Positions 39,866 through 56,330 of a stretch of DNA of 64,000 nt are shown here, in pieces. The position numbers and the translations under genes are program-made. Position 1 is the first letter of the stretch; every line of letters starts with the position of its first letter. A model generated the notes under the pieces. That model did not search any database and was not told where the DNA came from. It was given only the letters and a program-made list of their open reading frames with translations. Origin of the DNA: a virus. Location of the stretch: positions 32,001-96,000 of the IMG/VR virus record IMGVR_UViG_3300031257_000001; one strand, given 5' to 3'.

Positions 39866-41050
39866 ATGAGCGTACGCAACGAAGCGCTAGATGACAAGGG
39901 CCGCGAGCGAGTTCAGTGCCTGCGCTGCAAGGCCAACGGCGTGGTGTCGTACTATCACCGTCTTCAGAAGCACCTACAGACATCGCACGGCATGTCGCTG
40001 GACGAGTATGAAGTCCACCACCCCGGAGCGCCGGTGAAGTCATCGACTGCGGAGCGCGCAGACCAGCGCGCCAAGAAGGCAAAGGCCGACATCCATCCGA
40101 AGCCCACCGCGGACGACACGCACGCTGACGACGGCGAGGACCCAGTGTACACGTTCGGTTGCGCGCACATCGTGGGACGGGTTGACCTCGATGGTGATGA
40201 CAAGTCACACGTCCCACATCATGACGAAGGGTGGAATGTCGGAGCGTCTGAGCAAGCCAGCCTTGAGGCGCTTGCCCTCGGAATCGAGACCAACCAGAAT
40301 GTTCTCATCGTGGGGCCTCCTGGCGTCGGCAAGAGTACGCTTGCCCGGGAGCTGGCCGCCATCGCCAACGCTCCGCTGCGTTACTTGCCCATCAACGGCG
40401 AGATGCGCACAGATGATCTCATGGGCGGCGACCAGCTGCTGGTAGACAAGGAGACAGGCCAGACTGTCACCCAGAACGTGGATGGGCCGTTGCCGGAGGC
40501 CGGTGAGCGTGGCCATTGGGTCCTGTTCGATGAGTTCGACAGCCTCCCGAGCCACGTGGGATTCATCCTGCACGGAGTGCTGGAGGCGGAACGGAAGCTC
40601 ACGCGCGCCAACGGGAATCGGGTGGAGTTCAGCGAGCACTTCCGCGTCATCGCCACTGCCAACACCCTCGGGTTGGGCGATGACACAGGACAGTTCGCTG
40701 GGACGGCGCCGATGAACCGCGCGTTGCTCGACCGGTTCGGCATCGTCATCAGGGTGGGCTTCCCGGAGCAGGAGGATGAGATTGAGATGCTTGTCAGGAA
40801 GGCCGGCTTGCGTCGCAACGTGGCGGAGAACATGGTCAAGATCGCGCGCCAAGTTCGTGAGGCCGTTGCCAACGATACCACCAATGCCGACCTCAGTCCG
40901 CGCCGGCTTTTGATGTGGGCTACCACCACCAAGAAGATGGGCGGGAACGTGGTCAAAGCGGCCCGCTACACTATCATCAACCGCCTGTCCAAAGAGGATG
41001 GCGACTTTGTCTCAGGTCTCATTCAGCGCACGTTCGGGGGGACGCCATGA
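39866..41050 (+). CDS. MoxR/CobS-like AAA+ ATPase with N-terminal zinc finger
   Basis: CLRC...H...H, GPPGVGKS, LFDEFD, FRVIATANT and ALLDRF motifs. Confidence 0.9.
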   Translation: MSVRNEALDDKGRERVQCLRCKANGVVSYYHRLQKHLQTSHGMSLDEYEVHHPGAPVKSSTAERADQRAKKAKADIHPKPTADDTHADDGEDPVYTFGCAHIVGRVDLDGDDKSHVPHHDEGWNVGASEQASLEALALGIETNQNVLIVGPPGVGKSTLARELAAIANAPLRYLPINGEMRTDDLMGGDQLLVDKETGQTVTQNVDGPLPEAGERGHWVLFDEFDSLPSHVGFILHGVLEAERKLTRANGNRVEFSEHFRVIATANTLGLGDDTGQFAGTAPMNRALLDRFGIVIRVGFPEQEDEIEMLVRKAGLRRNVAENMVKIARQVREAVANDTTNADLSPRRLLMWATTTKKMGGNVVKAARYTIINRLSKEDGDFVSGLIQRTFGGTP

Positions 41051-41100
41051 GGCTCCTGTTCAACTTCCACAGTCTGAAGAAAGTTCCAACTGTGCCATCG

Positions 41101-41177
41101 AAAGTTCTAGCCCTCTCATCAAAAACGCGGTAGATGTAGAGGGTGGCGTTGGCGAGACGCCACAACCTGGAGATCAG
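41101..41177 (+). promoter_or_regulatory. Second copy of the promoter/leader, upstream of the vWA gene
   Basis: AAAGTTC-TAGCCC-N17-TAGATG, GTGGCGT...ACGCCAC hairpin, AACCTGGAGATCAG. Confidence 0.55.
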
Positions 41178-41181
41178 CAGA

Positions 41182-43269
41182 ATGAAAACAGCGAAGCGCT
41201 ACCAGATTCCAGCAGAACTGCGCGGTCTGGTCGGCCCCTTCACCAAGATTGCGCGCGCGTTGAGTCGCAACCACCGCATCGAGGTCATCCCGTCCGGGAC
41301 CCGGTGCGCGACCGATTGCCGCGGCCGCATCTGGATTCCGTTCAACGCCGACAAGCTCACCCCGGGCCTGCGCCAGAAGATGAATGGGATGCTCGACCAC
41401 GAGACGGCGCACGTGGCTGAAGAGCGCGAGGCTCGCGAAGCCGGCCAACTCACCGCCCATGAGATCATGCACTCGGAGCGGAACAAGACCGTCAAGATGC
41501 TGATCAACGTGTTCGAGGACATCAGGATTGAGCGCAAATGGGCTGAGCGCTACCCTGGAATGGCACAGAACCTCAGCGCCCTCAACGAGCAAACGGTGGA
41601 GCTGTTCGAGCGTCGCCATGGCTCTGGCGGGAACGCTTGGCACCAGGTTGGTTGCGCTATCATCTGCGCCGCGCGCGGACTGGGATGTGGTTGGCTCAAG
41701 CCTGAGCTTCAGCCGTACTTTGAGCGTTGCGAACAGTTCGTGGAGCGTTGCCCCGAGATGGTCTGGCCGGCGGATGCGCAACGACTCGCACAGGAAGCCC
41801 ATGCAGAGTTGCTAACGCTGGCCGAAGAACAGAAGCGCCAGGCTGAAGAGGAACGCAAGCGACGAGAACACGAGGATGATGACGAGGGTGACGAGGAGCC
41901 CGAGGGCGATGATGAGTCCGAGGGTGACGATGAGTCCGAGGGTGACGATGAGTCCGAGGGCGATGATGAGTCCGAGGGTGACGAGGACGATGACGATGGC
42001 GGCTCGTCCAGCGAGGATGACGACGCTGGTGGGGATGGTAACGAGCCTGGACCCTCGGATGATGACGATGAGGACGATGCAGACGATGGCAGCGAGGATG
42101 AGCCTGATGGTAGCGGTGATGGCGCTGGCGAGGGCCTGGGCGAGCTAGATGACGAGGACGGCGAGCCCGAAGATGATGGCGAGGCGGAGGCTGATGGCGA
42201 GGCGGAGGCTGATGGTGAAGGCGATGAGGGCGACATCGATCCTGACGACATGGCCGCCGGCGCCGATGAGATTCTGGAGTCCGATGCTGACGATGAAGAT
42301 CTGATTGGCGCCATGCGCGACGACATAGCAGAGCAGACGGACGTGGAGGCCAGCGACGGCGCCCACTACATCCCGCACCCCGCCCTGACCGACATGGACG
42401 GGTACGCCACCGAGGGCGAGATTGTTCGCAGGGGCGATGAGAAGACAGCCAGGGAGGCCCGTGATGAGGTGAGAGAGCAGGTCAGCACGCTCCGAGCCAA
42501 GCAGCTTGCCTACCTTCAGACGGTCACCCGGACGAAGCGCCGTTGCGCACTTCGAGCCGGACGGCTGGATCGCAAGGCGCTGACCAAGGCGCGCATGGGT
42601 TCTGACCAGGTGTTTACCGACACCCGCAAAAACAGAGACTTGGACACAGCCATCGAGGTTTTGGTGGACATGTCTGGCTCGATGGGTCTGAATACACACC
42701 ACACTTGTGCTGCGTACTACGCAATGCGCTGTGCGGTCGCCCTCGCAGAAGCGTGGGAAGGGCTGAGCATCCCTTGTGAGTTCACCGGCTTCTGGAACAT
42801 CTCGCGCTACCCACCGCCTGATGAGCGGTTCGTGTGTCGAGGCGCCCTGCGCTACTTCATGATCAAAGGTTGGGATGAGAAGGTGTCCAAGACGCTCCCG
42901 AGATTCGGCGCCATCAAAGGGAAGGGCGACAACACAGATGGCGAGGCTGTGCTCCATGCGGCTCGTCGCCTTGCCTCACGCCGCGAGAAGCGCAAGATCC
43001 TGGTGGTCATCTCCGACGGCTTCCCGGCCGCTGCCAGGACCGACTCTGAACAGCTCAACGATCACCTCCGCGAAGTGGTCAAGATGATCACCTCATCAGG
43101 CATCGAGGTTCTGGGGATTGGCGCTGGCACCGACGCGCCCCGCCACTTCTACAACCAGGACACCGGAGCCAGGAATGTTGTAATCAGGGACATGAACTTG
43201 CTGGCGATCAGCGTGTTCAGGGCCATGAAGGAGATGCTGGCAGCGCACGAGGGGAGGGCCGCGGCATGA
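41182..43269 (+). CDS. CobT-like vWA-domain protein with HExxH N-terminus and acidic linker
   Basis: DHETAH, NVFEDIRIE, VDMSGSM (MIDAS), DGEA and VISDGFP motifs. Confidence 0.88.
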   Translation: MKTAKRYQIPAELRGLVGPFTKIARALSRNHRIEVIPSGTRCATDCRGRIWIPFNADKLTPGLRQKMNGMLDHETAHVAEEREAREAGQLTAHEIMHSERNKTVKMLINVFEDIRIERKWAERYPGMAQNLSALNEQTVELFERRHGSGGNAWHQVGCAIICAARGLGCGWLKPELQPYFERCEQFVERCPEMVWPADAQRLAQEAHAELLTLAEEQKRQAEEERKRREHEDDDEGDEEPEGDDESEGDDESEGDDESEGDDESEGDEDDDDGGSSSEDDDAGGDGNEPGPSDDDDEDDADDGSEDEPDGSGDGAGEGLGELDDEDGEPEDDGEAEADGEAEADGEGDEGDIDPDDMAAGADEILESDADDEDLIGAMRDDIAEQTDVEASDGAHYIPHPALTDMDGYATEGEIVRRGDEKTAREARDEVREQVSTLRAKQLAYLQTVTRTKRRCALRAGRLDRKALTKARMGSDQVFTDTRKNRDLDTAIEVLVDMSGSMGLNTHHTCAAYYAMRCAVALAEAWEGLSIPCEFTGFWNISRYPPPDERFVCRGALRYFMIKGWDEKVSKTLPRFGAIKGKGDNTDGEAVLHAARRLASRREKRKILVVISDGFPAAARTDSEQLNDHLREVVKMITSSGIEVLGIGAGTDAPRHFYNQDTGARNVVIRDMNLLAISVFRAMKEMLAAHEGRAAA
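41902..41982 (+). repeat. 18-bp coding tandem repeat (EGDDES x4)
   Basis: GAGGGYGAYGATGAGTCC repeated four times. Confidence 0.9.
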
Positions 43270-44291
43270 GTGTTGACAACATCACCATGCGCGACTTGTA
43301 CCCGGAGCTGGAGGCAAGCCTGCGTCCTACCATGCTTCAAATGGCGCAGCAGTTCGCCCCGTCGCTGGGGATGGACGTGGACGATGCGATGCAGGAGGCC
43401 CGCATCGCCATCCACCTCGCGTTCCAATCGTATGACTATAACCGGAGTCACGGTGGGATCAGGGCTTTCGCGCGCCAGGTGATCAAGCACACATTCTGTG
43501 GGTTGGCCTATGCGGCAGCGACTCGGGCCCGCTGCCCACACACAGTGTACACGGACGACTCCGGACAATCACAAGTTGTGAAACACCGCAAGCTCGCATC
43601 GCTGGAGGACTTGCTTGAGTCAGGTGGCTTGCAATGGCCGTTGAGCATGGAGTGTGAAGCGGAAGCCGAATTGGACACCCACCGTATCGCCGACAGGCTC
43701 ATGGTCCTTCGGATGCGGTTGTACAATCAATTGGGCCCACAGGAACAGCAGGTGTTCCGCCTTAAGGCTCGGCCCCCGGAAGCGTTCTTGGTGTTCCTAC
43801 GCAACATCGGTGTGGACGCGGCCGATGTGAATCACAAGCACATTGCGCGCTATCTTGGCACCACCAAGAATTCAGTGGACTACTCGTTGCTCAAGATTCG
43901 AGGCGACTTCAGGCGCCTTGCTGAGCATGAATTCAGCGACCTTGTGGCAGACCTGATAAGAGACGGGGATTGGCCGATGGTTCACGTCAGCAACAACCCG
44001 AACGATGCCGCATTTGTGCGACAAGTCATACAGTCCAGAAAGCTGGACCCGCGTCCACTTCCACAACGTCGGGACATCAGGATCGGGTTAAGTGTCGGCC
44101 GGATCATCGAACGTTATCACTGGGGCGCCGTGCTCCACCTCAAGCTCCGCGACCACCGGGCGACCGTGGTTGTGGAAGGACGGTTCAACGAGAATACCGG
44201 GGATGTGTTTGGCCAACACGGCATCTGGAAGCCGATCACAGAGGATGTTCCCTGGTACAAGACCCTGGTCCAGGAGATTGATCGACCATGA
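43266..44291 (+). CDS. Sigma70-like factor with C-terminal extension
   Basis: DVDDAMQEARIA....F..YD (region 2); L...EQQVF.L and HKHIARYLG.T..SV...L.KIR (region 4 HTH). Confidence 0.7.
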   Translation: MSVDNITMRDLYPELEASLRPTMLQMAQQFAPSLGMDVDDAMQEARIAIHLAFQSYDYNRSHGGIRAFARQVIKHTFCGLAYAAATRARCPHTVYTDDSGQSQVVKHRKLASLEDLLESGGLQWPLSMECEAEAELDTHRIADRLMVLRMRLYNQLGPQEQQVFRLKARPPEAFLVFLRNIGVDAADVNHKHIARYLGTTKNSVDYSLLKIRGDFRRLAEHEFSDLVADLIRDGDWPMVHVSNNPNDAAFVRQVIQSRKLDPRPLPQRRDIRIGLSVGRIIERYHWGAVLHLKLRDHRATVVVEGRFNENTGDVFGQHGIWKPITEDVPWYKTLVQEIDRP

Positions 44292-45133
44292 CTGAGAAAC
44301 GCAAGATGCCACCGTGCCTAGGTGGCTATGAGAACAAGGACAAGATCTGCGACGGCAACCCCAAGGCAAAGGACGAGGGTGAGCATGCTCCATGCCTGTT
44401 CCGCGACCGCTGTGTTGGGTTCCAATGCCTGCTCAAGGATCTGGCAGCCGCCGGCAAGCCTGGCGACGCTGAGGACTACTTGTCGGTCAAGAAGGTGGAC
44501 GGTGAGGAATTTGCATTTGCCAAGAAGAGTGGCGATGCATTGGAGCTAGCCATCGACAAGCGCATCGCCAAGTATGGCGTCAAGGATGGCAAGATCACCG
44601 TCCCGAGGGGCCGCAAAGAGAAGCCTTCCAAGAAGGCCCCTGCTGCCAGCAAGAAGGCATCTGCAAAAGGCGCTGTGCAAGAGTCCAAGGAGCCCGACGA
44701 ATCAGCAGACGATGCCAGGGAGCTGTGCGCTTGGTTCACATCTAAGCTGCAAGAAGCAACCGGGCGGGCCGTCCACGACCTCCCCGGCGACTGCGAGGCC
44801 GGCGAGCTGTTCATCATCGATCGGCATGAGAAGTCCAACTATGCCGCGGTTTATGCCAGGGGCGACGTGAGTCACAAGGTGGCTGTGGCCTCGATGTACC
44901 CGAACCGCCGGACAGGGACGCTGCAGATCAGGGTGGCGGCGCCATTCGAGGCGTTCATGAAGGGGTTGTCCAAGGCGTCACGCTCCGCATTGGAGCCGGA
45001 GGATTACACCGGCAAGGACGGCCGGTTCAGGGTGCGCATCAGCGGCCTGGACAAGGAGGGCGCTTCCATTGTCGCTGAATCCGTGTCCGCTGCCATCAGC
45101 AGCGGTATCATCAACTTGCCTGGGATTAGCTGA
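44288..45133 (+). CDS. Hypothetical protein with N-terminal Cys cluster
   Basis: PPCLG.Y....C...PC.FRDRC; ATGA coupling. Confidence 0.65.
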   Translation: MTEKRKMPPCLGGYENKDKICDGNPKAKDEGEHAPCLFRDRCVGFQCLLKDLAAAGKPGDAEDYLSVKKVDGEEFAFAKKSGDALELAIDKRIAKYGVKDGKITVPRGRKEKPSKKAPAASKKASAKGAVQESKEPDESADDARELCAWFTSKLQEATGRAVHDLPGDCEAGELFIIDRHEKSNYAAVYARGDVSHKVAVASMYPNRRTGTLQIRVAAPFEAFMKGLSKASRSALEPEDYTGKDGRFRVRISGLDKEGASIVAESVSAAISSGIINLPGIS

Positions 45134-45150
45134 TCTCCGGGTGAGGGCAG

Positions 45151-45215
45151 GGCGCCCTCCGTCGCTGTGTTCCGTTTCCACAGCACACTCTCGCCAGTGT
45201 CTGACGGAGGGCGCC
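45151..45215 (+). ncRNA. Putative structured leader RNA (three-way junction)
   Basis: Perfect 13-bp P1 enclosing 6-bp and 5-bp hairpins. Confidence 0.5.
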
Positions 45216-45238
45216 AGGCCCGCTTTCACGAGGGTCCC

Positions 45239-46225
45239 ATGAAGGTCGCCATCGTCGGTGGGGGCATGAGCGGTTTGGTTGCCGCGTATGTCTTCCAGCA
45301 GTACCGTGACATCAGCGTCACCATCTACGAGCCGGGCCGCCCGGGCGTAGCGTTCCTCGCCGGCGGGCTGAAGTACATCCACCGGACGGATGAGACGGTT
45401 CAGATGCTCCACGACCACAGCGTGGTCTTCACCAACTACACCGTCCGTGGAGGGATCTTGCTCCATGGGACTGTCGAGCAGTATCCCGGTTGCTTCTCTG
45501 GAATGCAGCCAGAACGTTCCAAGCGGATCCAGGAGGATCATTGGCGCAAGACTCGGCACACAGAGCCGGGTGACTTCAGCCTCCGCTCGATGAACGATCC
45601 GGAAGCCAGCGGGCCGCGCCGGGCCCTCCGGTGCGCGCTCAACGAACTGGTGGACGCGATGCTTGCCGATGTTCATGTCAGACCGGAGGCCATCAAGCGC
45701 ATCGAGCCCAACAGGCTGATTGGCAGGACTGGGCAGCCGTATGGATTCCACTACGCCATCGTCACCATTCCCCTCTGGATTGTGCGGTGCATGGTGGATT
45801 GGCACATCCCCGAGGCGTATGCGATGAAGCTCAACGTGGTCACGGCAGAGCCGCTTCGCGACCCGTTCGCCAGGTGGGACTACGTGTACACGCCATACAC
45901 GCCGGCGAGCCTCATCCACCGCATCTCACCGACTGAGAATGGCTACAGTTGTGAGTTCAACGGGGCTTGGGAGGAAGGCGCAACCAATGACCGTGTCGCC
46001 TCTGATCTGAACTTCCTGTTCCCATCAGGTTGGGTGATCAACGACGTGAAGCGGAATCTGAGCGGGCATCTTCTTCCGCTCCCGGAGCGACCCAAGTGGC
46101 CAGACAACATCAAGCCTCTGGGCCGCTTCACACGATGGGAACCGAGGGCCACGACGGACGCCACACTGCGCGACGCACATAAGCTGGCGCAGGAGTGGGG
46201 ATGGGAGCTCAAGAGGATTGACTGA
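45239..46225 (+). CDS. FAD-dependent oxidoreductase (UDP-galactopyranose mutase/HemY-like fold)
   Basis: MKVAIVGGGMSGL Rossmann motif, VTIPL, C-terminal LGRFTRW. Confidence 0.8.
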   Translation: MKVAIVGGGMSGLVAAYVFQQYRDISVTIYEPGRPGVAFLAGGLKYIHRTDETVQMLHDHSVVFTNYTVRGGILLHGTVEQYPGCFSGMQPERSKRIQEDHWRKTRHTEPGDFSLRSMNDPEASGPRRALRCALNELVDAMLADVHVRPEAIKRIEPNRLIGRTGQPYGFHYAIVTIPLWIVRCMVDWHIPEAYAMKLNVVTAEPLRDPFARWDYVYTPYTPASLIHRISPTENGYSCEFNGAWEEGATNDRVASDLNFLFPSGWVINDVKRNLSGHLLPLPERPKWPDNIKPLGRFTRWEPRATTDATLRDAHKLAQEWGWELKRID

Positions 46226-47228
46226 TTGGACCAGAGGCAAACACCCGTGCGGGTGTGAGATGGACATGCGGCTGAAGTGCGTGAAGCACTGCGGTGGCCA
46301 CGGAATTCCGCCGGATCAACCCGCAAGTGATGCGTTCGGCGTGATGTGGGATGAGCAATCCGGTCAGCAACGCGAGTTGGGCTTGGATCCGGAGCATTTG
46401 GATGATGTAGAGCGCGGCCGAGTCATCACCGACATCGTGGCCCAGGCACATGAAGAGGTGTCTGAGTTAGGTCGGCTCAGTTCCGCTTACAAGCGCCATC
46501 TCCTGTCTCGACCTCGAACGGACCCGGCCATGGTCGCTGAGGAAGTGGCAGACGTGCTCAAGTGCGCCATCGCGGCCGCCCAAACGTTCGGCCTCACCTC
46601 GTTGGACGTGGTGGAGGCTTTCTCGCGCAAGACAATGACAGTCTCGGAGCGGGCCCGGCAAGAGCGTGTCCGGCTTGAACAAGAGACGCCAATCCTGTGT
46701 TTCGACTTGGACGATGTCATCTGTGACTTGTCGCCATGGCGGCAGGAGCTTGACGGCGGGATTGACGTGGATGCCCCGCCGGCGGACAAGCTCGCCTCCG
46801 CCGAACGTCTCAAGGAACAGTTCTATGAGGGCGGACGATTCCGTGAGATGGAACCAGTTCCTGGCGCCAGAGAGGCGTTGGGGCGGTTCACCTCGGAAGG
46901 CTTCCACATCATCATCATGACGGCCCGTCCTCAGTGGCAGTACAAGCGGCTGTACGGCGACACGGTTGAGTGGCTGCTGGAACACGGGATCCCGTTCCAC
47001 CGGATCATGTTCAACAAGGACAAGGTGGAAGCGGTGTACCAACACCTGGTTCCGGGCTGGCCAATGTTCTTCGTGGAGGACCACGAACGAAACATCAAGG
47101 CGTTGGCTTCAGTGGGGATCCATGTACTTGTGTATAATCAGAAGCACAACGAAGGAATCCAGGACACCGAGAACACCACGCGCGTGTACGATTGGCGTGA
47201 GATTGAAAGGATTGTGTTGGGGACATGA
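46218..47228 (+). CDS. MazG-like NTP pyrophosphohydrolase fused to HAD 5'(3')-deoxynucleotidase
   Basis: EEVSEL...EEVADV (MazG); FDLDDV, TARP and VEDH (HAD). Confidence 0.82.
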   Translation: MTDWTRGKHPCGCEMDMRLKCVKHCGGHGIPPDQPASDAFGVMWDEQSGQQRELGLDPEHLDDVERGRVITDIVAQAHEEVSELGRLSSAYKRHLLSRPRTDPAMVAEEVADVLKCAIAAAQTFGLTSLDVVEAFSRKTMTVSERARQERVRLEQETPILCFDLDDVICDLSPWRQELDGGIDVDAPPADKLASAERLKEQFYEGGRFREMEPVPGAREALGRFTSEGFHIIIMTARPQWQYKRLYGDTVEWLLEHGIPFHRIMFNKDKVEAVYQHLVPGWPMFFVEDHERNIKALASVGIHVLVYNQKHNEGIQDTENTTRVYDWREIERIVLGT

Positions 47229-48355
47229 CAAGCTACTTGATGAGGACGCTCGACCGATATCCAATCCAGTTCGCCTCCGGCGACGGCTCGTGGTTGGTCA
47301 CTCCGGATGACGAGAGCTATCTGGACTGGTTCACAGACGTGGGGACCGCTTCATTGGGCTACGGATCGCAGGAGGCACGGACGGCGATGGGGCGGATGGT
47401 CAGCAGCAGAATCCCATTCCACACGCCCAACTTGTTCGGGTGCCCAGAGCGCGAGCGGGCCGCGGAGCGCCTGTGCAAGGCGACTGGGATGGAAAGGGCA
47501 TTCTTCTGTAACAGCGGAGCTGAATCCGTTGAGGCAGCCATCAAGCTCGCCCGTCTCAACACCCACAACAAGCTGGTCGCAGCGGTTGTGGGCTCGTTCC
47601 ACGGCAGAACCTATGGGGCGCTGGCATCCGGCGACGGCGGGAAGCACCACTATGAAGGGTTCGGACCGCTGCCAGGGATGTTCGTACATTGGGAGCCGCC
47701 CGAGATGCCTCCGCCTGAAGTTGGGATCGTCATCATTGCTCCCATCTTCGGAAACAACGACGTCCAAGTGTACGGCGCATGGTTGAAGAGGCTTCAACGT
47801 TGGTGCCAACAGGTCAACATCCTGCTCATCTTCGATGAGGTCCAGACAGGCTCTTGCCGGGCCTCCGGAACCATGAGTTATTCGCACCACATCGGAGTGC
47901 TCCCTGACATCCTCTGCTTGGCTAAGGGTGTGGCCATGGGAGCGCCTGTCGGGGTCACCCTATCACGCAACGGGTTGGACTTCAGCCCCGGAAGCCACTT
48001 CAGCACGTTTGGCGGTGGACCGCTGTCAGCGGTGATGGTGAACGCGATGATCGACTGGTCCGAGAAGCACCAGCAGACCGTCGGGACCGTTGGGCGCTTC
48101 ATCCGCAGGCGGTTGAAGGAGCGTAAATGGGCCAAGAATGTACGTGGCGAGGGGATGCTCATCGCGTTTGATTGGGATGGCGATTGCTTGGGATTGGCAG
48201 CCGCCGCCTTTGAGGAGCGCCTGCTCATCGGGGCGTTTCGCCGGGGCCCGGGCCCGATCAAGATCACACCGCCGTTGAACATCGTTCCGGCAGATATCAA
48301 GTTCGGGTTTGAAGCGCTTGATCGTGCTGTGGCGAGGTCAGAGGGTGCTTCCTGA
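47225..48355 (+). CDS. Class III PLP aminotransferase (ArgD/ornithine aminotransferase-like)
   Basis: NSGAESVEAAIKLAR, FHGRT, FDEVQTG, LAKG and STFGG motifs. Confidence 0.92.
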   Translation: MTSYLMRTLDRYPIQFASGDGSWLVTPDDESYLDWFTDVGTASLGYGSQEARTAMGRMVSSRIPFHTPNLFGCPERERAAERLCKATGMERAFFCNSGAESVEAAIKLARLNTHNKLVAAVVGSFHGRTYGALASGDGGKHHYEGFGPLPGMFVHWEPPEMPPPEVGIVIIAPIFGNNDVQVYGAWLKRLQRWCQQVNILLIFDEVQTGSCRASGTMSYSHHIGVLPDILCLAKGVAMGAPVGVTLSRNGLDFSPGSHFSTFGGGPLSAVMVNAMIDWSEKHQQTVGTVGRFIRRRLKERKWAKNVRGEGMLIAFDWDGDCLGLAAAAFEERLLIGAFRRGPGPIKITPPLNIVPADIKFGFEALDRAVARSEGAS

Positions 48356-49424
48356 TTATACGCAAATGTTCCCAGAGGGAATCTTTGAAAGCGACAGCAT
48401 GGAGATCAACATGACAAAGGAGCCGAAAGTCACACTGGTGACGCACACTCGGGACCCTCTGGAGACGGTGTATGCCGTCTGGAAGGCCAGCAAGGATGAG
48501 GAGCCGCTGATGACAACGCAGGCGGTGAAGCTGACCGTTCCAGATGGCAAGGTCAGAGACCTGTTCCGCCGGGTCATCGCACAACGCATTCCGGTTGGCG
48601 AGCACGTGGACTTCGTGTTCATGGTCGAAAACATCAGCGTCAGCTGGCGTGAGCAGGCTGTGCGCCATCGCATCGGCGTCAAGCCCTCCCCGGAGCGCGT
48701 GGGCGCCGACATCGTGATGATGGACAGGATCCCGGACCTCGCCGAAAGCAGTTGGTGGTCGCAAAGTATGAGATTGATGGACATGGGGAAGTTCGCTCAA
48801 AACGGAGCATTCAGGCTTCCGGCGACAGTGGAGCGCGATTCCAAGCTCACCCAGATGTTCATCGAGACCATGTTCACCATCCAGCGGACCTACAACGTTC
48901 TGGTGGAAGCAGGCATCCCAATGGAGGATGCGCGTGAGCTCATGCCGCTCGGAGCCCAGCATCGCATCTCGTGGAAGCTCAACATCGGGGCGCTGCAACA
49001 TATCGTCTCCAAGCGTGGCTGCTTCATCCTGCAACTTGGGATCTGGGGGCCTGTGATCCAGGGGGTGATCACCGAGCTGGTCCAGAAGGTTGACCCTGTG
49101 TTCTCAGAGTTGGTCACGCCGCCGTGCCTCGATGGCAACACGTTCAAGGGGTGCGCGTTCCACGAGGAGTGCCGGCGCCGGATCAGCGGCGAGGACGCTC
49201 TGCCGCCTTGCCCGCTCCACTTCCGGCATCATCACATCCCCGAGAAGATGGGGAATGGCGACGACATCGCCCACGCCCACACGCCCGAGGTTCAGGACAA
49301 GTACCACTTGCCCATGGCTGAAGAGATGCGGGCTCGTGCCGAGGATTACATGCGGTTCTGGTACCGTGACCCGTACACCGGCGAGCGCTTGGGTACATCG
49401 AACGTAGCGATGAGGCTGATGTGA
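48345..49424 (+). CDS. ThyX-like flavin-dependent thymidylate synthase homologue (deviant)
   Basis: EH..F.F..ENIS....Q..RHR, SQSMR, GIP.EDAR..MP and KRGC motifs; extra Cys-rich C-terminus. Confidence 0.8.
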   Translation: MLPDYTQMFPEGIFESDSMEINMTKEPKVTLVTHTRDPLETVYAVWKASKDEEPLMTTQAVKLTVPDGKVRDLFRRVIAQRIPVGEHVDFVFMVENISVSWREQAVRHRIGVKPSPERVGADIVMMDRIPDLAESSWWSQSMRLMDMGKFAQNGAFRLPATVERDSKLTQMFIETMFTIQRTYNVLVEAGIPMEDARELMPLGAQHRISWKLNIGALQHIVSKRGCFILQLGIWGPVIQGVITELVQKVDPVFSELVTPPCLDGNTFKGCAFHEECRRRISGEDALPPCPLHFRHHHIPEKMGNGDDIAHAHTPEVQDKYHLPMAEEMRARAEDYMRFWYRDPYTGERLGTSNVAMRLM

Positions 49425-49963
49425 TCATCGTCCTGGAGGGGCTCAACGCTACCGGCAAAAGTTCAGTGGCGGAACAGCTTCACGGTGATTGGGGGTATCC
49501 AATCATCAGGCTGTTCCGCTGCTGCAGCGACGACCACCTGGACGGCAGCCGGGTGGAGCACCTCCGATCGTTGGGCATCCCTGTCAACACGTATGTGGAG
49601 GATGCCTTCGTTGCGGACTTCTTGGTGAGGACGGGCGCCCACGCCACACTGGACCGCTCGATGCCCAGCGGGTTGGCCTACGCTTTGGTGGAGGACAGAA
49701 TCGACAGCGAGCAGGTCGGGCCGCTGATGAGGCTCTGGTGCGACACGCTGCGCAAAACCAAAGTCCACGTCATCCAACTCCACGCATCGAGGGCGGAGCG
49801 TGAGCGCCGGATTGAGGGCCGCGAGATTCACCCGCAAGACGGCATTCTTGAAGAGTGGCTGGATGAGATCATGGAGTTGTGCGACCTCCCGATGACGAGG
49901 GTTGACACCACGACGTTGTCCAAGGAGGCCACGCTGAAACGCTGTCTGGAATGCCTACGCTGA
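49421..49963 (+). CDS. dNMP (thymidylate-like) kinase
   Basis: IIVLEGLNATGKSS P-loop, LDRS.PS..AY. Confidence 0.8.
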   Translation: MIIVLEGLNATGKSSVAEQLHGDWGYPIIRLFRCCSDDHLDGSRVEHLRSLGIPVNTYVEDAFVADFLVRTGAHATLDRSMPSGLAYALVEDRIDSEQVGPLMRLWCDTLRKTKVHVIQLHASRAERERRIEGREIHPQDGILEEWLDEIMELCDLPMTRVDTTTLSKEATLKRCLECLR

Positions 49964-50361
49964 AGGAGCTCAGGAATTGGGCGCGGGGCGAGGACATCGC
50001 CGGGCTGCCGGAGCAGTCTGTGCGGACTTCGCCATCCCAACGAGAACACCCCGGGCGAGTCAAGATGCTGGAGCGTTTGGAACAGCTGAAGCTCCAAGCG
50101 CGGACCGCCGGCGGACAGCAGACGGGGATGTACAAGATCAGCACGGGCGGCGACGATGCTTTGATCAAGTTCGGGAAGCACGCCGGGAAGGCGTTGTCAG
50201 TGATCATGGATGAGGATCCGACCTATCTGGCGTGGATGCTTCGTGATGACGATGACGGCCAGCCTCGGTTCGATTCCGTCTTGCTTGATGTGGTGAAGTA
50301 TGTACAGGAATCCCACTGGAAGAAAGCGCGTGAAGAGCGCGCAAAGGGGCGCCGGAGATGA
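49951..50361 (+). CDS. Small protein with ExoX C-terminal-like FGKH motif
   Basis: KFGKHAGK.LS.I...DPTYL.W. Confidence 0.6.
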   Translation: MPTLKELRNWARGEDIAGLPEQSVRTSPSQREHPGRVKMLERLEQLKLQARTAGGQQTGMYKISTGGDDALIKFGKHAGKALSVIMDEDPTYLAWMLRDDDDGQPRFDSVLLDVVKYVQESHWKKAREERAKGRRR

Positions 50362-53300
50362 GCAAGCCTGACGACATCGTTCACCTCCACGTCCACAGCG
50401 ACATGTCCAATCTGGACGGCTGCGGCAAGATTCCGGACTATGTGGCCGCGGCCAAAGCCAGAGGTCACCGGGGCGTCGCCTTCACCGACCACGGGACGAT
50501 GCGCGGGTACATGACCCAGCACGAGCAGTGCAAGGAGCACGACGTCAAGCCCGTCTATGGCCTTGAGTTCTATGTGTCTCCTGACATGCGGAGGCGTGGG
50601 CTCACCGAGGATGAACGGGCGGACATCACCCGGGACCTCCCCAAGTCAGAACACAAAGCTGCCATCAAGAAACATGAGGAGCACGCAGGGATCCGCGACC
50701 GTTGGCACCTGACCGTTTGGGCCCTCGATCAGGTTGGTCTGCAGAATTTGTACAGGCTCTCATCCGCGGCGTGGATTGAGGGGTTCTACTACAAGCCACG
50801 CATCGACCTCGATGAGCTGATCAAGTACGGCGTAGGGTTGGCGGTCGGCTCCGGCTGCTTGGCGTCGCCCATCAACGACTGCTGGGTGTTGGGTAGGCAG
50901 AAGCAAGCGCTGGGGTACGCCGATCGGTTGGCGGATGCGTTCGGCGACAGGCTGTACCTGGAAGTCATGCCACACGCCATTCGGGATCAGCGCCTTGCCA
51001 ATGGGCTGATGCTCAAGCTCCGCAAGCGGTACGGCAGCCGGGGTGTTCGCTTGCTCGCAACTCAAGACGCCCACTATGTGGAGCAGGCAGACGCTTGTCA
51101 CCACGAGGTTCTTCTGTGTATCGGGACCAACTCCATCCTGAGTGACCCAGAACGCTTCAAGTTTGATGGCAACGAATTCCATTTCAAGACGCGCAAGGAG
51201 ATGATTAGGAGCTTCCGGCGGAACCATGAGTTCATGCCAGACAGCGCCATCCGAGAAGCGTTGAACACCACGCTGGAGCTTGCGGAGCGCGTGAGTGCCA
51301 AGGTGGAGGTGGACTACCACAAGGCGTTGCTTCCTGATTCAGGCATCCCGGCAAAGTGTGATGGCAACGCATTTGCCTATCTGCGCGATTTGTGTCTGGA
51401 CGGATGGAAGTGGCGTGAGATTCCCAAGCGCGCGGCCGCCTATGCCGCCGTCCACGGAGTCAGCAAGCCAGAGGCGCTGGCCATCTACCGCGACAGAATG
51501 AAGTACGAGATGGGCGCGCTGGTCCGCCAGAGGTTTGTGCCCTACTTTTTGATGGTTCACGACATCTACCGCTTCGCACGCGAGGCACACATCATGACCG
51601 GGCCCGGGCGCGGCTCGGTTGCCGGATCGCTTGTTGCCTACTGCTTGGGGCTTACAGCTGTGGATCCCATTGAGTTCGGCTTGATCTTCGAGCGCTTCAT
51701 CAACCCGGACCGCATCGACATGCCGGATGTGGACATGGACTTCGAGGACAGGCGCCGGTCTGAAATCATGGACTATTTGCGCGCCAAGTACGGCGAGGAC
51801 AAGGTGTGCCAGATCGCCACCATTGGGAAGCTGTCGGGGAAGCAGTGCATCCGCGACGTGAGCCGGGTCCTTCAGGTCCCACTCAACGAGGTGAACCAGG
51901 TCACAGCGTCGATCATCGAGCGTAGTTCAGGTGATGAGCGTGCCAGTCAGACCATTGAGGACAGCTTCCAGGAGTTTGCAGTGTGCCGTGCCTTCAACAA
52001 GCGGCATCCAGAAGTCCTAGAACACGCCCGCAAGCTGGAGGGGATGGCCAAGAACCTCGGGATACACGCGGCAGGCGTCGTGGCATCCCCGGTCCCGTTG
52101 ACGGACCTTCTGCCGTTGGAGATCCGGAAGCACGACGGCCGCGACCTTGTGGTGAGCGCCGTGGATATGTACGGCGTGGCCTCGACTGGACTGGTAAAGC
52201 TGGATGTTCTCGGGCTCCGAACGCTCACAGTGATCAAGGAGACGCTGGAGGCCATCGACCGGCGTCACGGTCGGCACATCGACATGGAATCCAGGGACAT
52301 CGACCTGAACGATCCCAAGGTGCTACAGGGATTCACCGACCACAACTTTGGAGGTGTGTTCCAGTACGACACGACCAGCGCGGCCGCGGTCTGTCGTGGC
52401 GTGAAGTTCGCCCACTTTGAGGATGTGGCCGCACTCACCGCACTGAATCGCCCGGGCACCTCCCGGTCGGGCCTCGCCACTGAGTACGTGAGGCGAAAGA
52501 AGAAACCAAAAGAGGCTGAAAAGGATCATTTCCATCCGTTGGTCAGCAAGATCACCAAGGACACCCTTGGGATCATCGTGTACCAAGAGCACGTCATCCG
52601 CATCTTCATCGAGGTGGCAGGCTTCGCTCCCGGCACGGCTGACAGCCTGCGCAAAACCATTGCCAAGAAGATCGGCGATGAGGCCATGGGCAAGGAGCGC
52701 GAAAACTTCATCAGGGGCGCTTGGGAGCACTCCCGGGTGGACCGAGCCACGGCGGCCAAGATAATGGACGCGATCACTTTCTTCGGCTGTGTGCCATTCT
52801 GGACGCAAATCGCGATTCCGCTTGACGGAGAACGCTCAATTGGTGTAACGGCTAGAACCTTGCCGATCGATCTGGTTCGACCGGGCGACGAAGTCTGGAG
52901 TGTGGACGAGCATTGGCGTTTGGTTCGGAACCGCGTCAAAAACGTGGTGGCGACAGGGCGAAAGCCGTTGTTCCGAATCGTCGCAAAGATACATGACGGC
53001 AACAGGAGGGTCACAGTCGAGGCTACCGCTGGCCACTATTGGTTGCTCGTTTCGGGGAAATATGCAAAGACGGAACAGCTCAAGTCAGGCGACGTCATCG
53101 CGTATCGGAACCGAACGGCGTTGCGTGTCGATGTAGCGATCGTCCAATTGATCGAGCCGGTGGAGTTTGTCGGTGACGCAACCACTTATGATCTTGAAGT
53201 GGAGAACGAGCCACACAACTATGTCGCCGACGGATTCGTTTGTCACAACAGCTACGGATTCAACAAAACGGTCGGCCGGTCTGCGATGGTGTGGAAGGCC

Positions 53301-56300
53301 GGAGCGAATGCTAGCGATCCCAGGGGTCAAGTTTCAATAGGTGAAATTGCCGATAGGTGGAACGAGCGCAAGGATGGCACATGGTCTCCAATGGCTCGAA
53401 AATTGCGCTATGGCAGATTCAAAATCATCCAGATGGATGAAGATGGGCGCTGTCGCCCAGCGCGCCTCATTGGAATCCATGATCACGGTGTCCAGCGCGT
53501 GTATCGGCTCAAGACAAAAAGTGGCATTGAGACGCCGCCAATCAGCCGTAACCACCGTTTGATGACGTCAGAAGGGTACAAGTCCATAGCCACTGGACTC
53601 GGCCCGGGTGATGCGCTCTTGTTCATGGGCGAGAACAAGGGCCATGATTATTGCTCCTGGTTTGCTGGCGGTGATAGGCAGTTTGCGCAGTCCGGTAGGG
53701 TGAATGACGCATACCGCGCGACGGTTGCTGCTGTTTGGAAGCGTGACGGTGGCAAGTGCTCCGAGTGTGGCGCGAAGTGCGAGCATGGGCGTGGCGGATC
53801 CGAGGTGGCCCACATCTGGTCGCCGGCCGAATGCGATTACAACAAGGCTCTTTTCCACTCTGAGGCAAATCTGCGTCTGTTGTGTAATTCTTGCCACAAG
53901 CGTCTTGACTATGAGAAAGGTGAGCGCCAAAGGCGATGGAGCAAGGGCAGACCGACATTTGCTGATGAGGTGGTTGAGGTCATCGATTCCGGCGAGGAGC
54001 ATTGCTATGATCTTGAGGTGGACGCTCCGGGCCACAACTTCGTCACCGGGCCGGACGGAGAAACGCCGCCGGTCGTTTCCCACAACTCACACGCTACCGC
54101 ATATGGCATGATTGCGTTCTGGTGCGTTCACGGGCAAACGCGATTGCTGGATTGGAGCAAGAAAGAGTACACCACGGTGGCACGTGCTTATCGGGAAGGC
54201 ACAAGCATGATCGCTTGTTACGACGAACGGACTGGGGGGACGATCGGCGGCAAAGTTAAGTGTGTGATTCGGACTGGCAAGAAGAAGGTATGGGAGGTGC
54301 GTCTGCGCTCCTACAAGACGCTTCGGTGTTCCTCTGATCACTTGATCTTGACGGACGAAGGATACAAGAAAGCGTCTTGCCTTCGCGTCGGCGATCTGGT
54401 CGCTTCGGAAAAGAGGCTTTCGCCTTCAAAGAGAGAATCTGTCAAGAAGAAGCTGCGACGCGCCGCGAAGGAACAATGGGCGGGGCTGTCTCCGGAGCAA
54501 AGAGCGTCGATGGTCTCCAAAGCGCACGAGGCGTTGACGCCGGAATTTCGACGAGAGCACGTTTGGCGCGGCACAGCGGAAGACGGCCATAAGGTCTATT
54601 CATGGGGAGAGAAGTTGGTCGGTGATTGGCTGTCGAGCCGTGGGCTGGAACACGAGACGCAACCTAGCGTCGGACGCGGCAAGCGAGCTGACTTCATTTG
54701 CCAAGGCGTGTACGTCGAATACGACGGGATGCGACGCGAAGAATCGTATTGGGAGGACAAATTCGGGGATCTGCCGTATGTCGTCGTTAAGCCGGGGGAC
54801 GACTTGGACGATGTACTTTCGTTCTTGGTCGAGACGGGCAAGATCGTCGTCGGCGAAGAAGTCGCGTTCGAGCCGGTCGTCTTCGCAAGAAAAACGGAGC
54901 GCGTCGCGTTGATGTACGACGTCGTCATGGAAGGCGAGCCGCACAACTTCCTGGCCAACAACATCGTCGTCCACAACTGCATGTGGCTCAAAACTTACTA
55001 TCCTTTGGAGTTTTATTGGGCGTTGCTCAAGAACGAGCCTGACAGGCTTCGCATCCAGCAGTTCGCCAAGGACGCGAAGCAGCACGGCATCGCCCTCTTG
55101 CCGCCACACGTCAACGTGTCCGATGACGTGTTTGCCATTGACGACGCCAGGACGGCCATCCGCGGTAGCCTCGTGGACATCAAGGGCGTGGGGAAGGCAG
55201 CTGCCAAGGCAGTCATCGCCAACAAGCCATACCGGAGTCTGCTGGACTTGGTGGACAGGGTTGAGCGCCGGGCCGTTCACCGAGGCGTCGTGGTCGCCCT
55301 CGCCTCCGCCGGCGCGCTGGAAGGGATGCTACCCAACACCAGGCACTTCGTGGAGAACATCGACGCATGGTGGAAGGTGCTCACAGCCAAGGCCAAGCGT
55401 GCCAAGAAGTTGCGTGAACTTCTGGCTGCAGCGAGGGCGGAGCCGGACTGGCCGCCAGAGGACCGCGACCTGCTGGCGTCCCGGGTGAACCCGCTGGCGT
55501 TCGGCGCACACCCTGTAGAAGCCCACCTCAAGGCGATTGGGCACCGTATCATGGTGCCTGCTGTCACGATGGCTGACGAGGACTTCTTCAAGCGCCACAA
55601 CAGCAAGGGTGTGTACGTGATGGGGATGGTCGTTGAGGTCAAGTACAACCAGATCGGCGACTTCAACACCGGAGAACTGCCCAGCGAGACCGAGAAGCGC
55701 CGGATGTTCTGGGGCAGCCGATACGCCAACATCAACATTGAGGAAAGGACCGGGACGCAGAACCGATTCAAGGTTGACTTCCACATCTTTGATGACCACC
55801 GGGCCATCGTGGACAAGGGTGTCGGGACTCCGCTTGTGGCGTTCGCAACCCCAATGGCCTTCACAGGGACGTTCCGTGCCCACTTCTTGGTGGACATGGA
55901 GGTGCTCCGAGCCAAGCTCACATCCGGCGATGAGATGGATGTCTGGGAGAACATCGTTACCGGACGCCACCCGGCCCTCGTGTACCGCTGGGCATCGGAA
56001 TCCGTCCGTGAGGAGCGCTCGACCAACGCCAAGTTTGAAAAGTACGGTGGCCACTTCTGTGGTGTGGTCACACACATCCAGCCGAAGTATGACCGCAAGG
56101 GCGGGCTGATGGCCTACCTGGGATTGCTAGCCGGCGATGGCCGGTATGAGCGCGTGCTGGTGTTCGCATCGGTGTGGCAGCACATCAAGCGGAAGCTCAA
56201 ACGCGGGATGCTAGTCAGGATGGAGTTGGAGCGTAAGCCGGATCGTGGTGGATGGACGTGCTTCTACAACGGCGGGCATGTCAAGTTCTACAACAGAAAG

Positions 56301-56330
56301 ATTCCAGCCGCCACGCCGGCGGATGAGTAG
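50358..56330 (+). CDS. dnaE: DNA polymerase III alpha subunit with three inteins
   Basis: HLHVHS PHP domain, GPGRGS.AGSL, ERF.NP.R..MPDVDMDF, GIHAAGV, KLDVLGL, YQE. Confidence 0.97.
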   Translation: MSKPDDIVHLHVHSDMSNLDGCGKIPDYVAAAKARGHRGVAFTDHGTMRGYMTQHEQCKEHDVKPVYGLEFYVSPDMRRRGLTEDERADITRDLPKSEHKAAIKKHEEHAGIRDRWHLTVWALDQVGLQNLYRLSSAAWIEGFYYKPRIDLDELIKYGVGLAVGSGCLASPINDCWVLGRQKQALGYADRLADAFGDRLYLEVMPHAIRDQRLANGLMLKLRKRYGSRGVRLLATQDAHYVEQADACHHEVLLCIGTNSILSDPERFKFDGNEFHFKTRKEMIRSFRRNHEFMPDSAIREALNTTLELAERVSAKVEVDYHKALLPDSGIPAKCDGNAFAYLRDLCLDGWKWREIPKRAAAYAAVHGVSKPEALAIYRDRMKYEMGALVRQRFVPYFLMVHDIYRFAREAHIMTGPGRGSVAGSLVAYCLGLTAVDPIEFGLIFERFINPDRIDMPDVDMDFEDRRRSEIMDYLRAKYGEDKVCQIATIGKLSGKQCIRDVSRVLQVPLNEVNQVTASIIERSSGDERASQTIEDSFQEFAVCRAFNKRHPEVLEHARKLEGMAKNLGIHAAGVVASPVPLTDLLPLEIRKHDGRDLVVSAVDMYGVASTGLVKLDVLGLRTLTVIKETLEAIDRRHGRHIDMESRDIDLNDPKVLQGFTDHNFGGVFQYDTTSAAAVCRGVKFAHFEDVAALTALNRPGTSRSGLATEYVRRKKKPKEAEKDHFHPLVSKITKDTLGIIVYQEHVIRIFIEVAGFAPGTADSLRKTIAKKIGDEAMGKERENFIRGAWEHSRVDRATAAKIMDAITFFGCVPFWTQIAIPLDGERSIGVTARTLPIDLVRPGDEVWSVDEHWRLVRNRVKNVVATGRKPLFRIVAKIHDGNRRVTVEATAGHYWLLVSGKYAKTEQLKSGDVIAYRNRTALRVDVAIVQLIEPVEFVGDATTYDLEVENEPHNYVADGFVCHNSYGFNKTVGRSAMVWKAGANASDPRGQVSIGEIADRWNERKDGTWSPMARKLRYGRFKIIQMDEDGRCRPARLIGIHDHGVQRVYRLKTKSGIETPPISRNHRLMTSEGYKSIATGLGPGDALLFMGENKGHDYCSWFAGGDRQFAQSGRVNDAYRATVAAVWKRDGGKCSECGAKCEHGRGGSEVAHIWSPAECDYNKALFHSEANLRLLCNSCHKRLDYEKGERQRRWSKGRPTFADEVVEVIDSGEEHCYDLEVDAPGHNFVTGPDGETPPVVSHNSHATAYGMIAFWCVHGQTRLLDWSKKEYTTVARAYREGTSMIACYDERTGGTIGGKVKCVIRTGKKKVWEVRLRSYKTLRCSSDHLILTDEGYKKASCLRVGDLVASEKRLSPSKRESVKKKLRRAAKEQWAGLSPEQRASMVSKAHEALTPEFRREHVWRGTAEDGHKVYSWGEKLVGDWLSSRGLEHETQPSVGRGKRADFICQGVYVEYDGMRREESYWEDKFGDLPYVVVKPGDDLDDVLSFLVETGKIVVGEEVAFEPVVFARKTERVALMYDVVMEGEPHNFLANNIVVHNCMWLKTYYPLEFYWALLKNEPDRLRIQQFAKDAKQHGIALLPPHVNVSDDVFAIDDARTAIRGSLVDIKGVGKAAAKAVIANKPYRSLLDLVDRVERRAVHRGVVVALASAGALEGMLPNTRHFVENIDAWWKVLTAKAKRAKKLRELLAAARAEPDWPPEDRDLLASRVNPLAFGAHPVEAHLKAIGHRIMVPAVTMADEDFFKRHNSKGVYVMGMVVEVKYNQIGDFNTGELPSETEKRRMFWGSRYANINIEERTGTQNRFKVDFHIFDDHRAIVDKGVGTPLVAFATPMAFTGTFRAHFLVDMEVLRAKLTSGDEMDVWENIVTGRHPALVYRWASESVREERSTNAKFEKYGGHFCGVVTHIQPKYDRKGGLMAYLGLLAGDGRYERVLVFASVWQHIKRKLKRGMLVRMELERKPDRGGWTCFYNGGHVKFYNRKIPAATPADE
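52788..53249 (+). mobile_element. DnaE intein 1 (154-aa mini-intein)
   Basis: FFG|CVPFWT...TAGH...TYDLEV...CHN|S. Confidence 0.92.
53268..54086 (+). mobile_element. DnaE intein 2 (273 aa, HNH endonuclease, Thr1)
   Basis: FNK|TVGRSAMV...SRNH...RDGGKCSECG..EVAHI..NLRLLCNSCH...CYDLEV...SHN|SH. Confidence 0.9.
54123..54977 (+). mobile_element. DnaE intein 3 (285 aa, PD-(D/E)xK/Vsr-like nuclease)
   Basis: FW|CVHGQT...SSDH...S.GEK.V..WL...RADF...YVEYDG...MYDV...VHN|C. Confidence 0.9.

Follow-up and report, generated by a model that had tools for sequence, protein, structure and literature searches.

What is a tightly packed run of five enzyme genes doing directly upstream of a phage's own DnaE gene? 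The question is raised by a viral contig of 104,326 bp in IMG/VR (record IMGVR_UViG_3300031257_000001), rated complete by CheckV, of which bases 32001-96000 form the window of 64,000 nucleotides analyzed here. Between positions 45239 and 50361 this window encodes a flavoprotein, a fusion of a MazG-type pyrophosphohydrolase with an NT5C/HAD-type deoxyribonucleotidase, a class III aminotransferase that depends on pyridoxal phosphate (PLP), a long ThyX-family enzyme and a P-loop kinase, followed by a small open reading frame (ORF) that overlaps the DnaE gene. The answer that we tentatively favor, with a confidence somewhat short of even, is that the operon may be a nucleotide-level (pre-replicative) pyrimidine-tailoring route, in which deoxyuridine monophosphate (dUMP) would be converted to a pyrimidine bearing an amine at C5 and fed to DnaE; this reading rests on comparisons of sequence and predicted structure. 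With more reserve, we also think it possible that a ThyX-fold enzyme, which is not a homologue of ThyA, starts a new nucleotide-level pathway in which the flavoprotein, with the fold of a UDP-galactopyranose mutase (UGM), and the transaminase turn a one-carbon group at C5 into an amine, and that a widespread group of environmental phages of ~100 kb replicates with a positively charged thymidine substitute, e.g., 5-aminomethyldeoxyuridine (5-aminomethyl-dU), made as a deoxynucleoside triphosphate (dNTP). That the product is specifically 5-aminomethyl-dUMP is doubtful.

Layout and Coupling of the Operon

All long ORFs of the window lie on the plus strand, and the six ORFs of the operon were verified there, with family support for each. 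Together with the leader in front of them and the polymerase gene behind, they are listed below (aa, amino acids).

45134..45238, plus strand: structured intergenic leader of 105 nt, seen by RNA folding, between an upstream Zn-ribbon gene and the operon
45239..46225, plus strand: small flavoprotein, 328 aa in the database gene call, starting at ATG 45239; NAD_binding_8/DAO Rossmann matches; phage-specific member of the amine-oxidase/PPO/UGM superfamily
46218..47228, plus strand: fusion of a MazG-type NTP pyrophosphohydrolase and an NT5C/HAD 5'(3')-deoxyribonucleotidase; Pfam NT5C 63 bits against a cut-off of 24.8; start uncertain (46218, 46260 or 46344)
47225..48355, plus strand: class III (ArgD-like) PLP aminotransferase of a phage clade; PF00202 182 bits
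48345..49424, plus strand: long divergent ThyX-family enzyme, 359 aa as called; Pfam Thy1 (PF02511) 75 bits against a gathering cut-off of 24.8; the ORF opens at 48309
49421..49963, plus strand: thymidylate-kinase/deoxynucleoside-kinase-like P-loop kinase, 180 aa; Tmk-like profile
49951..50361, plus strand: small ORF, 136 aa, with an ExoX-like C-terminal motif; PF20600 31 bits against a cut-off of 26.5
50358..56330, plus strand: DnaE-type replicative polymerase, 1990 aa, intein-bearing; PHP, DNA_pol3_alpha, finger, HHH_6 and Intein_splicing domains

The genes are tightly coupled. Five packed enzyme genes and a small ORF running into dnaE had been noted in a preliminary description of this DNA, and this layout was borne out, with junction overlaps of 4-13 nt. 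The stop of the MazG-HAD gene and the start of the aminotransferase gene overlap by 4 nt, as do the ThyX and kinase genes and the small ORF and the DnaE gene, and the kinase gene overlaps the small ORF by 13 nt. The two other junctions depend on the start codon: the flavoprotein and MazG-HAD genes overlap by 8 nt only if the TTG at 46218 is the start (the alternatives are the ATG at 46260 or 46344), and the aminotransferase and ThyX genes overlap by 11 nt if ThyX starts at the GTG at 48345, its exact start being uncertain. The small ORF is kept weakly, in some relatives.

Because the 105-nt stretch upstream folds with very high predicted stability (-58.6 kcal/mol; z -5.0 relative to 200 shuffled sequences), the operon looks like a unit that starts at 45239. 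This leader carries no terminator-like T-run, comparison of the whole window, leader included, with Rfam gave no family, and promoter and terminator scans gave site numbers not above those of shuffled sequences; a regulatory leader and a processing site are both conceivable roles for it. Since family searches of the genome found no ThyA, dUTPase, dCMP deaminase or ribonucleotide reductase, the operon is the genome's whole nucleotide-metabolism investment.

Conservation of the Gene Set

The preliminary description had asked whether the five genes occur together elsewhere, and they do. Among 42 IMG/VR loci compared by tblastn and family hidden Markov models, the five enzymes are contiguous in about 25 (about 19 distinct), all from uncultured phages of ~100 kb. 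Recurrence as a contiguous block in some 25 viral contigs is far more than chance, and common descent within one phage lineage accounts for some of it. Conservation of the set is deep: across the five-enzyme loci the identity of ThyX ranges from 64% down to 38%, and the gene order is shuffled, with the aminotransferase before or after ThyX and the kinase before ThyX in two loci. One locus (L037) retains the whole set with a DnaE that is only 34% identical, and another (L028) holds ThyX, aminotransferase and kinase in a different neighborhood with no DnaE nearby. Independent match lists for ThyX, flavoprotein and aminotransferase have many equal-sized contigs in common, and the long ThyX has 330 homologues in metagenomes, many of them on contigs of 90-116 kb. 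Megablast with the operon sequence found no match among 50,697 phage records, and the closest DnaE of a cultured phage is 35% identical.

The same long ThyX (36-44% identity, with the same insert and cysteines described below) is also found in a second phage lineage, where it lies directly upstream of a family-A polymerase (PolA). In this lineage it is preceded by a nucleoside-2-deoxyribosyltransferase-family protein, a YfbR-type 5'-deoxynucleotidase and a DUF6378 protein; that the last might be a hidden MazG was considered and found unsupported. The clusters are located as follows.

L038:4950-10954: PolA-lineage ThyX cluster
L036:7890-11083: PolA-lineage ThyX cluster
L039:7748-10963: PolA-lineage ThyX cluster

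The first of these has in addition a second, motif-altered ThyX paralogue, a NADAR protein and a radical-SAM/SPASM enzyme. The PolA-lineage arrangement is probably another uncharacterized cluster for nucleotide or DNA modification. In phage M6, for comparison, the polymerase gene (gp62) comes a few genes after those for a ThyA-type homologue of thymidylate synthase (gp58) and an HD hydrolase (gp59).

The Five Enzymes

All of the enzymes can be assigned to a fold or family, with their catalytic motifs intact. Of the enzyme names given in the preliminary description, two needed amendment. What had been called an FAD oxidoreductase does have a flavoprotein fold, and the label is corrected here since its structurally nearest relative is UGM; the HAD half of the MazG-HAD fusion is plain, and the MazG half becomes visible only with a profile. 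The putative dNMP (deoxynucleoside monophosphate) kinase has a Tmk-like profile and resembles the 5-hydroxymethyldeoxyuridine (5-hmdU) DNA kinase of phage M6 as well.

The ThyX fold was confirmed with the predicted model, for which Foldseek returned the Thermotoga maritima ThyX structures (E 2e-7, TM 0.63 on the target). Like canonical ThyX from that species (TM0449), the phage enzyme has the RHR and S-x-R elements and two downstream arginines, which in the alignment coincide with Arg positions conserved in the enzyme of T. maritima. Unlike TM0449, it scores below the equivalog level (TIGR02170, 53 bits against a cut-off of 87.9), and the otherwise contiguous RHRxxxxxxxS signature is broken by an insert of 20-25 residues with low pLDDT between RHR and SQSxR, which is present in all long-type members. 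It further differs in a C-terminal extension of ~100 residues with four conserved Cys, and in the Tyr after S-x-R, which is replaced by Ile, Leu or Val. Identity to the ThyX of cultured phages is only ~25%.

By sequence, the flavoprotein shows a Rossmann motif only, also in a search against PDB, and nothing was matched in PHROGs. Its AlphaFold2 model, built from an alignment of 24 homologues, is confident (pLDDT 90), and Foldseek places it in the amine-oxidase/PPO/UGM superfamily with UGM as the top structural match and with overall fold similarity to UGM. The Pfam GLF domain gave no match at E <= 0.01, and no DAO/MnmC-type structure is among the 50 best structural matches. Judged from the model, the nearest structural relatives appear to be proteins that bind uridine nucleotides. 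The nearest Atlas clusters are 95-100% viral.

The aminotransferase has its best PDB match in Aquifex ArgD (2eh6, 1.3e-53), and it stays below all NCBIfam ArgD/equivalog cut-offs (TIGR00707, 224.6 bits against 410). The PLP lysine, Lys234, together with Asp204, Gln207 and Thr261, is invariant across 21 homologues. About 90 phage-type homologues outrank the cellular ArgD proteins, which begin at 35-38% identity.

For the kinase, the profile matches in PDB are YorR (2e-10), thymidylate kinases (1.7e-8) and deoxynucleoside kinases (2e-5), and the family match to thymidylate and deoxynucleoside kinases spans the full length. The G-K-S/T P-loop and a DRS..S..AY motif are conserved. Only the orthologue at L037 passes the Pfam Thymidylate_kin cut-off. 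Against the M6 DNA 5-hmdU kinase (gp54), hhalign gave 95% probability (E 3.6e-8) over 120 columns, the common part being the general P-loop kinase core.

The C-terminal half of the fusion belongs to the HAD phosphatases of NT5C type. Its four HAD motifs (DxDxV, T, K and ED) correspond to D163/D165, T235, K269 and E287-D288 and are conserved in 20 homologues, as is an acidic pattern of MazG type (EE...E..D..K) in the N-terminal half. From the single sequence the MazG half is a weak match (E 0.08-0.11), and a profile of 20 sequences matched in PDB both the cytosolic and mitochondrial 5'(3')-deoxyribonucleotidases (cdN/mdN, 1.5e-7) and the MazG-like structures 2q73, 2q5z and 5ie9 (1e-4 to 2e-3). 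Acting in turn, the two halves would degrade a dNTP as far as the deoxynucleoside, an activity that we infer to be one of exclusion, not supply.

A Possible Route to an Amine-Bearing Pyrimidine

In the established paradigm for non-canonical bases, a thymidylate-synthase homologue works with a cognate dNMP kinase and with removal of the canonical nucleotide (bioRxiv 10.1101/2025.06.16.659550). The preliminary description had seen such a gene set in the operon, and its members are indeed contiguous: a canonical-nucleotide remover, a modifier of thymidylate-synthase type, an enzyme resembling dNMP kinases and a polymerase of the phage itself, with substrates and products that are predicted.

If the operon is a tailoring route, the long ThyX would use reduced flavin and methylene-tetrahydrofolate to place a one-carbon unit onto C5 of dUMP and would release the product not as a methyl but as a hydroxymethyl group, or with a trapped exocyclic methylene. 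The UGM/amine-oxidase-fold flavoprotein would then oxidize or otherwise activate this side chain, most simply to give 5-formyl-dUMP, and the ArgD-like aminotransferase could use glutamate as donor to turn the aldehyde into a primary amine, yielding 5-aminomethyl-dUMP or a related amine-bearing nucleotide. The Tmk-like kinase would phosphorylate the new dNMP, with a host nucleoside diphosphate kinase completing the triphosphate, and DnaE would incorporate the modified product. Meanwhile, the MazG-NT5C fusion may act as a two-step drain of the canonical competitor (dNTP to dNMP to deoxynucleoside), most plausibly of thymidine triphosphate and monophosphate (dTTP/dTMP). A conversion of CH2OH to CH2NH2 by a pair of a flavoenzyme and a class III aminotransferase is known from neomycin/butirosin biosynthesis (NeoQ/NeoB).

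The layout of the operon points to nucleotide-level chemistry. Like the ThyA-family pre-replicative systems, which make 5-hmdCMP in T4, 5-hmdUMP in SPO1-type phages and 5-hydroxy-dCMP in RB69/DLP3, it combines a synthase-type enzyme, a dNMP kinase, a remover and a phage polymerase. Unlike them, it has no ThyA, its synthase being of the unrelated, flavin-dependent ThyX fold; it adds a class III aminotransferase and a UGM-fold flavoprotein; and its remover is a MazG-NT5C fusion, which would act down to the nucleoside. The pyrimidine modifiers that act on mononucleotides in two accounts of the field are all of the ThyA family (PMC8989533; bioRxiv 10.1101/2025.06.16.659550). The preliminary description knew of no characterized pathway combining ThyX, a class III aminotransferase and such a flavoprotein, and none was found here either: a full-text literature search turned up no paper on a ThyX-type pyrimidine modifier or on a ThyX-aminotransferase pathway.

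Ordinary dTMP Supply as an Alternative, and Restriction-Site Avoidance

A number of observations weigh against the tailoring route. The phage ThyX keeps the RHR and SQSxR elements, both downstream arginines and the residues by which a normal thymidylate synthase binds its nucleotide; it is the genome's sole thymidylate synthase, and its product could simply be dTMP. For the flavoprotein, the top structural match is a non-redox mutase and not an alcohol oxidase. The aminotransferase, at 35-38% identity to bona fide bacterial ArgD, grades into it, and an amino-acid or polyamine role for this enzyme is possible. The kinase aligns with the M6 DNA 5-hmdU kinase about as well as with Tmk. Furthermore, one locus (L042) has the pair of MazG-HAD and ThyX without aminotransferase or flavoprotein, so that the target of the fusion need not be dTTP.

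To these is added the behavior of palindromes over the whole genome. Those containing A/T are avoided (CTCGAG, 2 observed against 24 expected; AAGCTT, 14 against 37), GATC and CATG have z of about -11, and GTCGAC and ACGCGT are low as well, whereas hexamer palindromes of G and C only are at expectation (observed/expected 1.02). A thymine-specific relief from restriction avoidance was looked for with this palindrome test and rejected, the trend being the opposite. Such avoidance runs counter to blanket protection by a bulky replacement of thymine: a bulky and complete replacement should relax just this avoidance, and a small or partial thymine modification should not.

A somewhat unlikely alternative is an ordinary supply of dTMP. 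In that case, a divergent normal ThyX and a thymidylate kinase would make dTMP for canonical DNA, the MazG-NT5C fusion would clean or balance the pool, as does the deoxynucleotidase of T5, a phage with canonical DNA, the flavoprotein would keep the flavin of ThyX reduced, and the aminotransferase would be an auxiliary metabolic gene for arginine, glutamate or polyamines. The conserved nucleotide- and flavin-binding residues and the fold of ThyX, its place as the only thymidylate synthase, the nearness of the aminotransferase to ArgD with complete catalytic residues, and the persisting restriction-site avoidance all agree with it, and a core of ThyX, HAD and DnaE genes is found in other phages without an aminotransferase. 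It does not account for an ArgD-type aminotransferase, which has no role in dTMP synthesis, staying with ThyX and kinase in very distant relatives and in another genomic setting. As NAD(P)H is what ThyX enzymes use to reduce their flavin themselves, a separate, virus-only flavoprotein of UGM fold is unexplained. Moreover, if the thymidylate synthase were a normal one, either its substrate or its product would be lost to a fused pyrophosphatase-nucleotidase, and the ThyX itself is below its equivalog cut-off with a split motif.

Pbunaviruses and a Sugar-Based Alternative

A partial counterpart of the operon exists in Pbunaviruses. In phage LS1, the ThyX gene (gp72), a HAD/PNK-like gene (gp74), an exonuclease gene and the DnaE gene follow in succession, and PB1, F8, 14-1 and LS1 resemble our phage in the four-cysteine pattern of ThyX and in having a HAD-type gene, exonuclease and DnaE in the same order. 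They differ in that their ThyX is only 25% identical and has no insert, and in that their module holds neither an aminotransferase nor a Tmk-like kinase. Homology of LS1 gp74 to the MazG-NT5C fusion was considered and is unsupported (probability 22%). Near the LS1 ThyX gene lies a gene for a 333-aa hypothetical protein, gp66 (L044:6788-7789), which aligns with the N-terminal third of our flavoprotein, over 116 columns (hhalign 84%; hmmsearch 6e-4).

Pbunavirus DNA was long thought to be unmodified, and according to a 2025 preprint roughly one in four of its thymidines, in TG motifs, is replaced by nucleosides of 362 or 390 Da that carry erythritol/threitol-like or pentose groups, with no recognizable modification genes for this hypermodified thymidine (PMC12191111). 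By sequence comparison, gp66 is a candidate gene for this unexplained hypermodification. By analogy, and not as a test, the joint presence of hypermodified thymidine and of ThyX with a flavoprotein in Pbunaviruses makes it more plausible that phage pairs of ThyX and flavoprotein serve thymidine modification.

The Pbunavirus thymidines, the possible flavoprotein homologue near ThyX in LS1 and the top structural match to UGM together suggest another reading of our operon, in which the UGM-like flavoprotein would act on a nucleotide sugar, the aminotransferase would aminate a sugar-derived carbonyl, and the product would decorate a hydroxymethyl pyrimidine made by ThyX, perhaps in the way that the Pbunavirus thymidines with sugar-alcohol or pentose groups arise. 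We regard such a sugar or polyol modification as very improbable. There is no glycosyltransferase or nucleotidyltransferase in or beside the operon, the Pfam GLF domain is unmatched, and the flavoprotein homology in Pbunavirus is weak. Sugar aminotransferases, in addition, are normally of the DegT type and not ArgD-like.

A Post-Replicative Alternative

The likeness of the kinase to M6 gp54 bears on a further explanation, a post-replicative hypermodification of the M6/ViI/PhiW-14 type. Here, 5-hydroxymethyl-dUMP made by ThyX would be incorporated into DNA, the kinase would phosphorylate the resulting 5-hydroxymethyluracil in DNA, and the aminotransferase and flavoprotein would build a diamine, an amino acid derivative or an amino-polyol that is appended by an unrecognized transferase. 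The phages with such systems (M6, ViI, PaMx11, SP10, PhiW-14 and SH-Ab 15599) have C5 side chains on thymine that bear amines, as proposed here, and share overlapping classes of enzymes with our operon, namely a P-loop kinase, PLP enzymes and a flavoprotein (PMC8989533; PMC13458397). A diamine-modified thymine was described in 2026 (PMC13458397), flavin and PLP enzymes tailor the appended groups in known pathways (PMC8989533), and 5-aminomethyl-dU itself is a known post-replicative intermediate in PaMx11 (PMC8989533). The 95% match of the kinase profile to gp54 favors the same explanation, as does the capacity of class III aminotransferases to make diamines such as diaminobutyrate or diaminopropane precursors; a partial, motif-specific modification would also fit the persisting palindrome avoidance and the Pbunavirus precedent.

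We nevertheless consider post-replicative modification unlikely. No homologue of the M6 glycine:DNA transferase (aGPT-Pplase2, gp51) was found in the genome at E <= 1, in a weak single-sequence search, and in contrast to the known systems neither an aGPT-Pplase/DADT transferase nor a ThyA-type hydroxymethylase was found. The PLP enzyme of our operon is a transaminase and not a decarboxylase, and its flavoprotein, as noted, lacks DAO/MnmC-type structures among its 50 best matches. Along its whole length the kinase family matches thymidylate and deoxynucleoside kinases, with one orthologue passing the Thymidylate_kin cut-off, and the conserved 281-aa protein encoded upstream of the operon shows no enzyme family.

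The Surrounding Replication Module

The operon is embedded in a replication module, of which the 5' part encodes a DnaC-like loader, a DnaB-like helicase, a primase, a MoxR-VWA pair resembling CobS/CobT, a sigma-like protein and the 281-aa Zn-ribbon protein. The CobS-like AAA+ (MoxR) and CobT-like VWA pair and the sigma-70-like protein that comes after it (39866-43269) are kept upstream of the operon in most relatives. The 281-aa protein (44288-45133) has four N-terminal Cys, a linker rich in Lys and Arg, and a conserved C-terminal DR...S.Y..VY motif; in relatives it always stands between the sigma-like gene and the flavoprotein gene, and it matched no Pfam or PHROG family. It was considered as a hidden DNA transferase and excluded from the pathway, given its N-terminal cysteines, its basic linker and the lack of an enzyme family.

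On the 3' side of DnaE follow genes for an HU-like protein, an SSB-like protein, a short protein like DNA methyltransferases, an intein-bearing RecA and SbcD/SbcC. DnaE itself has ~600 extra residues of intein sequence compared with its relatives, which align only to residues 1-916 and 1520-1978, and the RecA gene (59094-61004) carries an intein with an HNH endonuclease. The methyltransferase-like protein (58534-59097, 187 aa), encoded between the SSB-like gene and RecA, matches a PHROG DNA methyltransferase family.

Significance

If the operon does tailor pyrimidines before replication, it would show that non-canonical DNA bases can be made on a second enzyme scaffold of unrelated mechanism. 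It would also be a possible enzymatic source of amine-functionalized dNTPs, and its genes would form a diagnostic set by which hypermodified genomes could be spotted among uncultured phages. For Pbunaviruses, which are used in phage therapy, the pairing of ThyX with a flavoprotein is a possible lead to the biosynthesis of their hypermodified thymidines.

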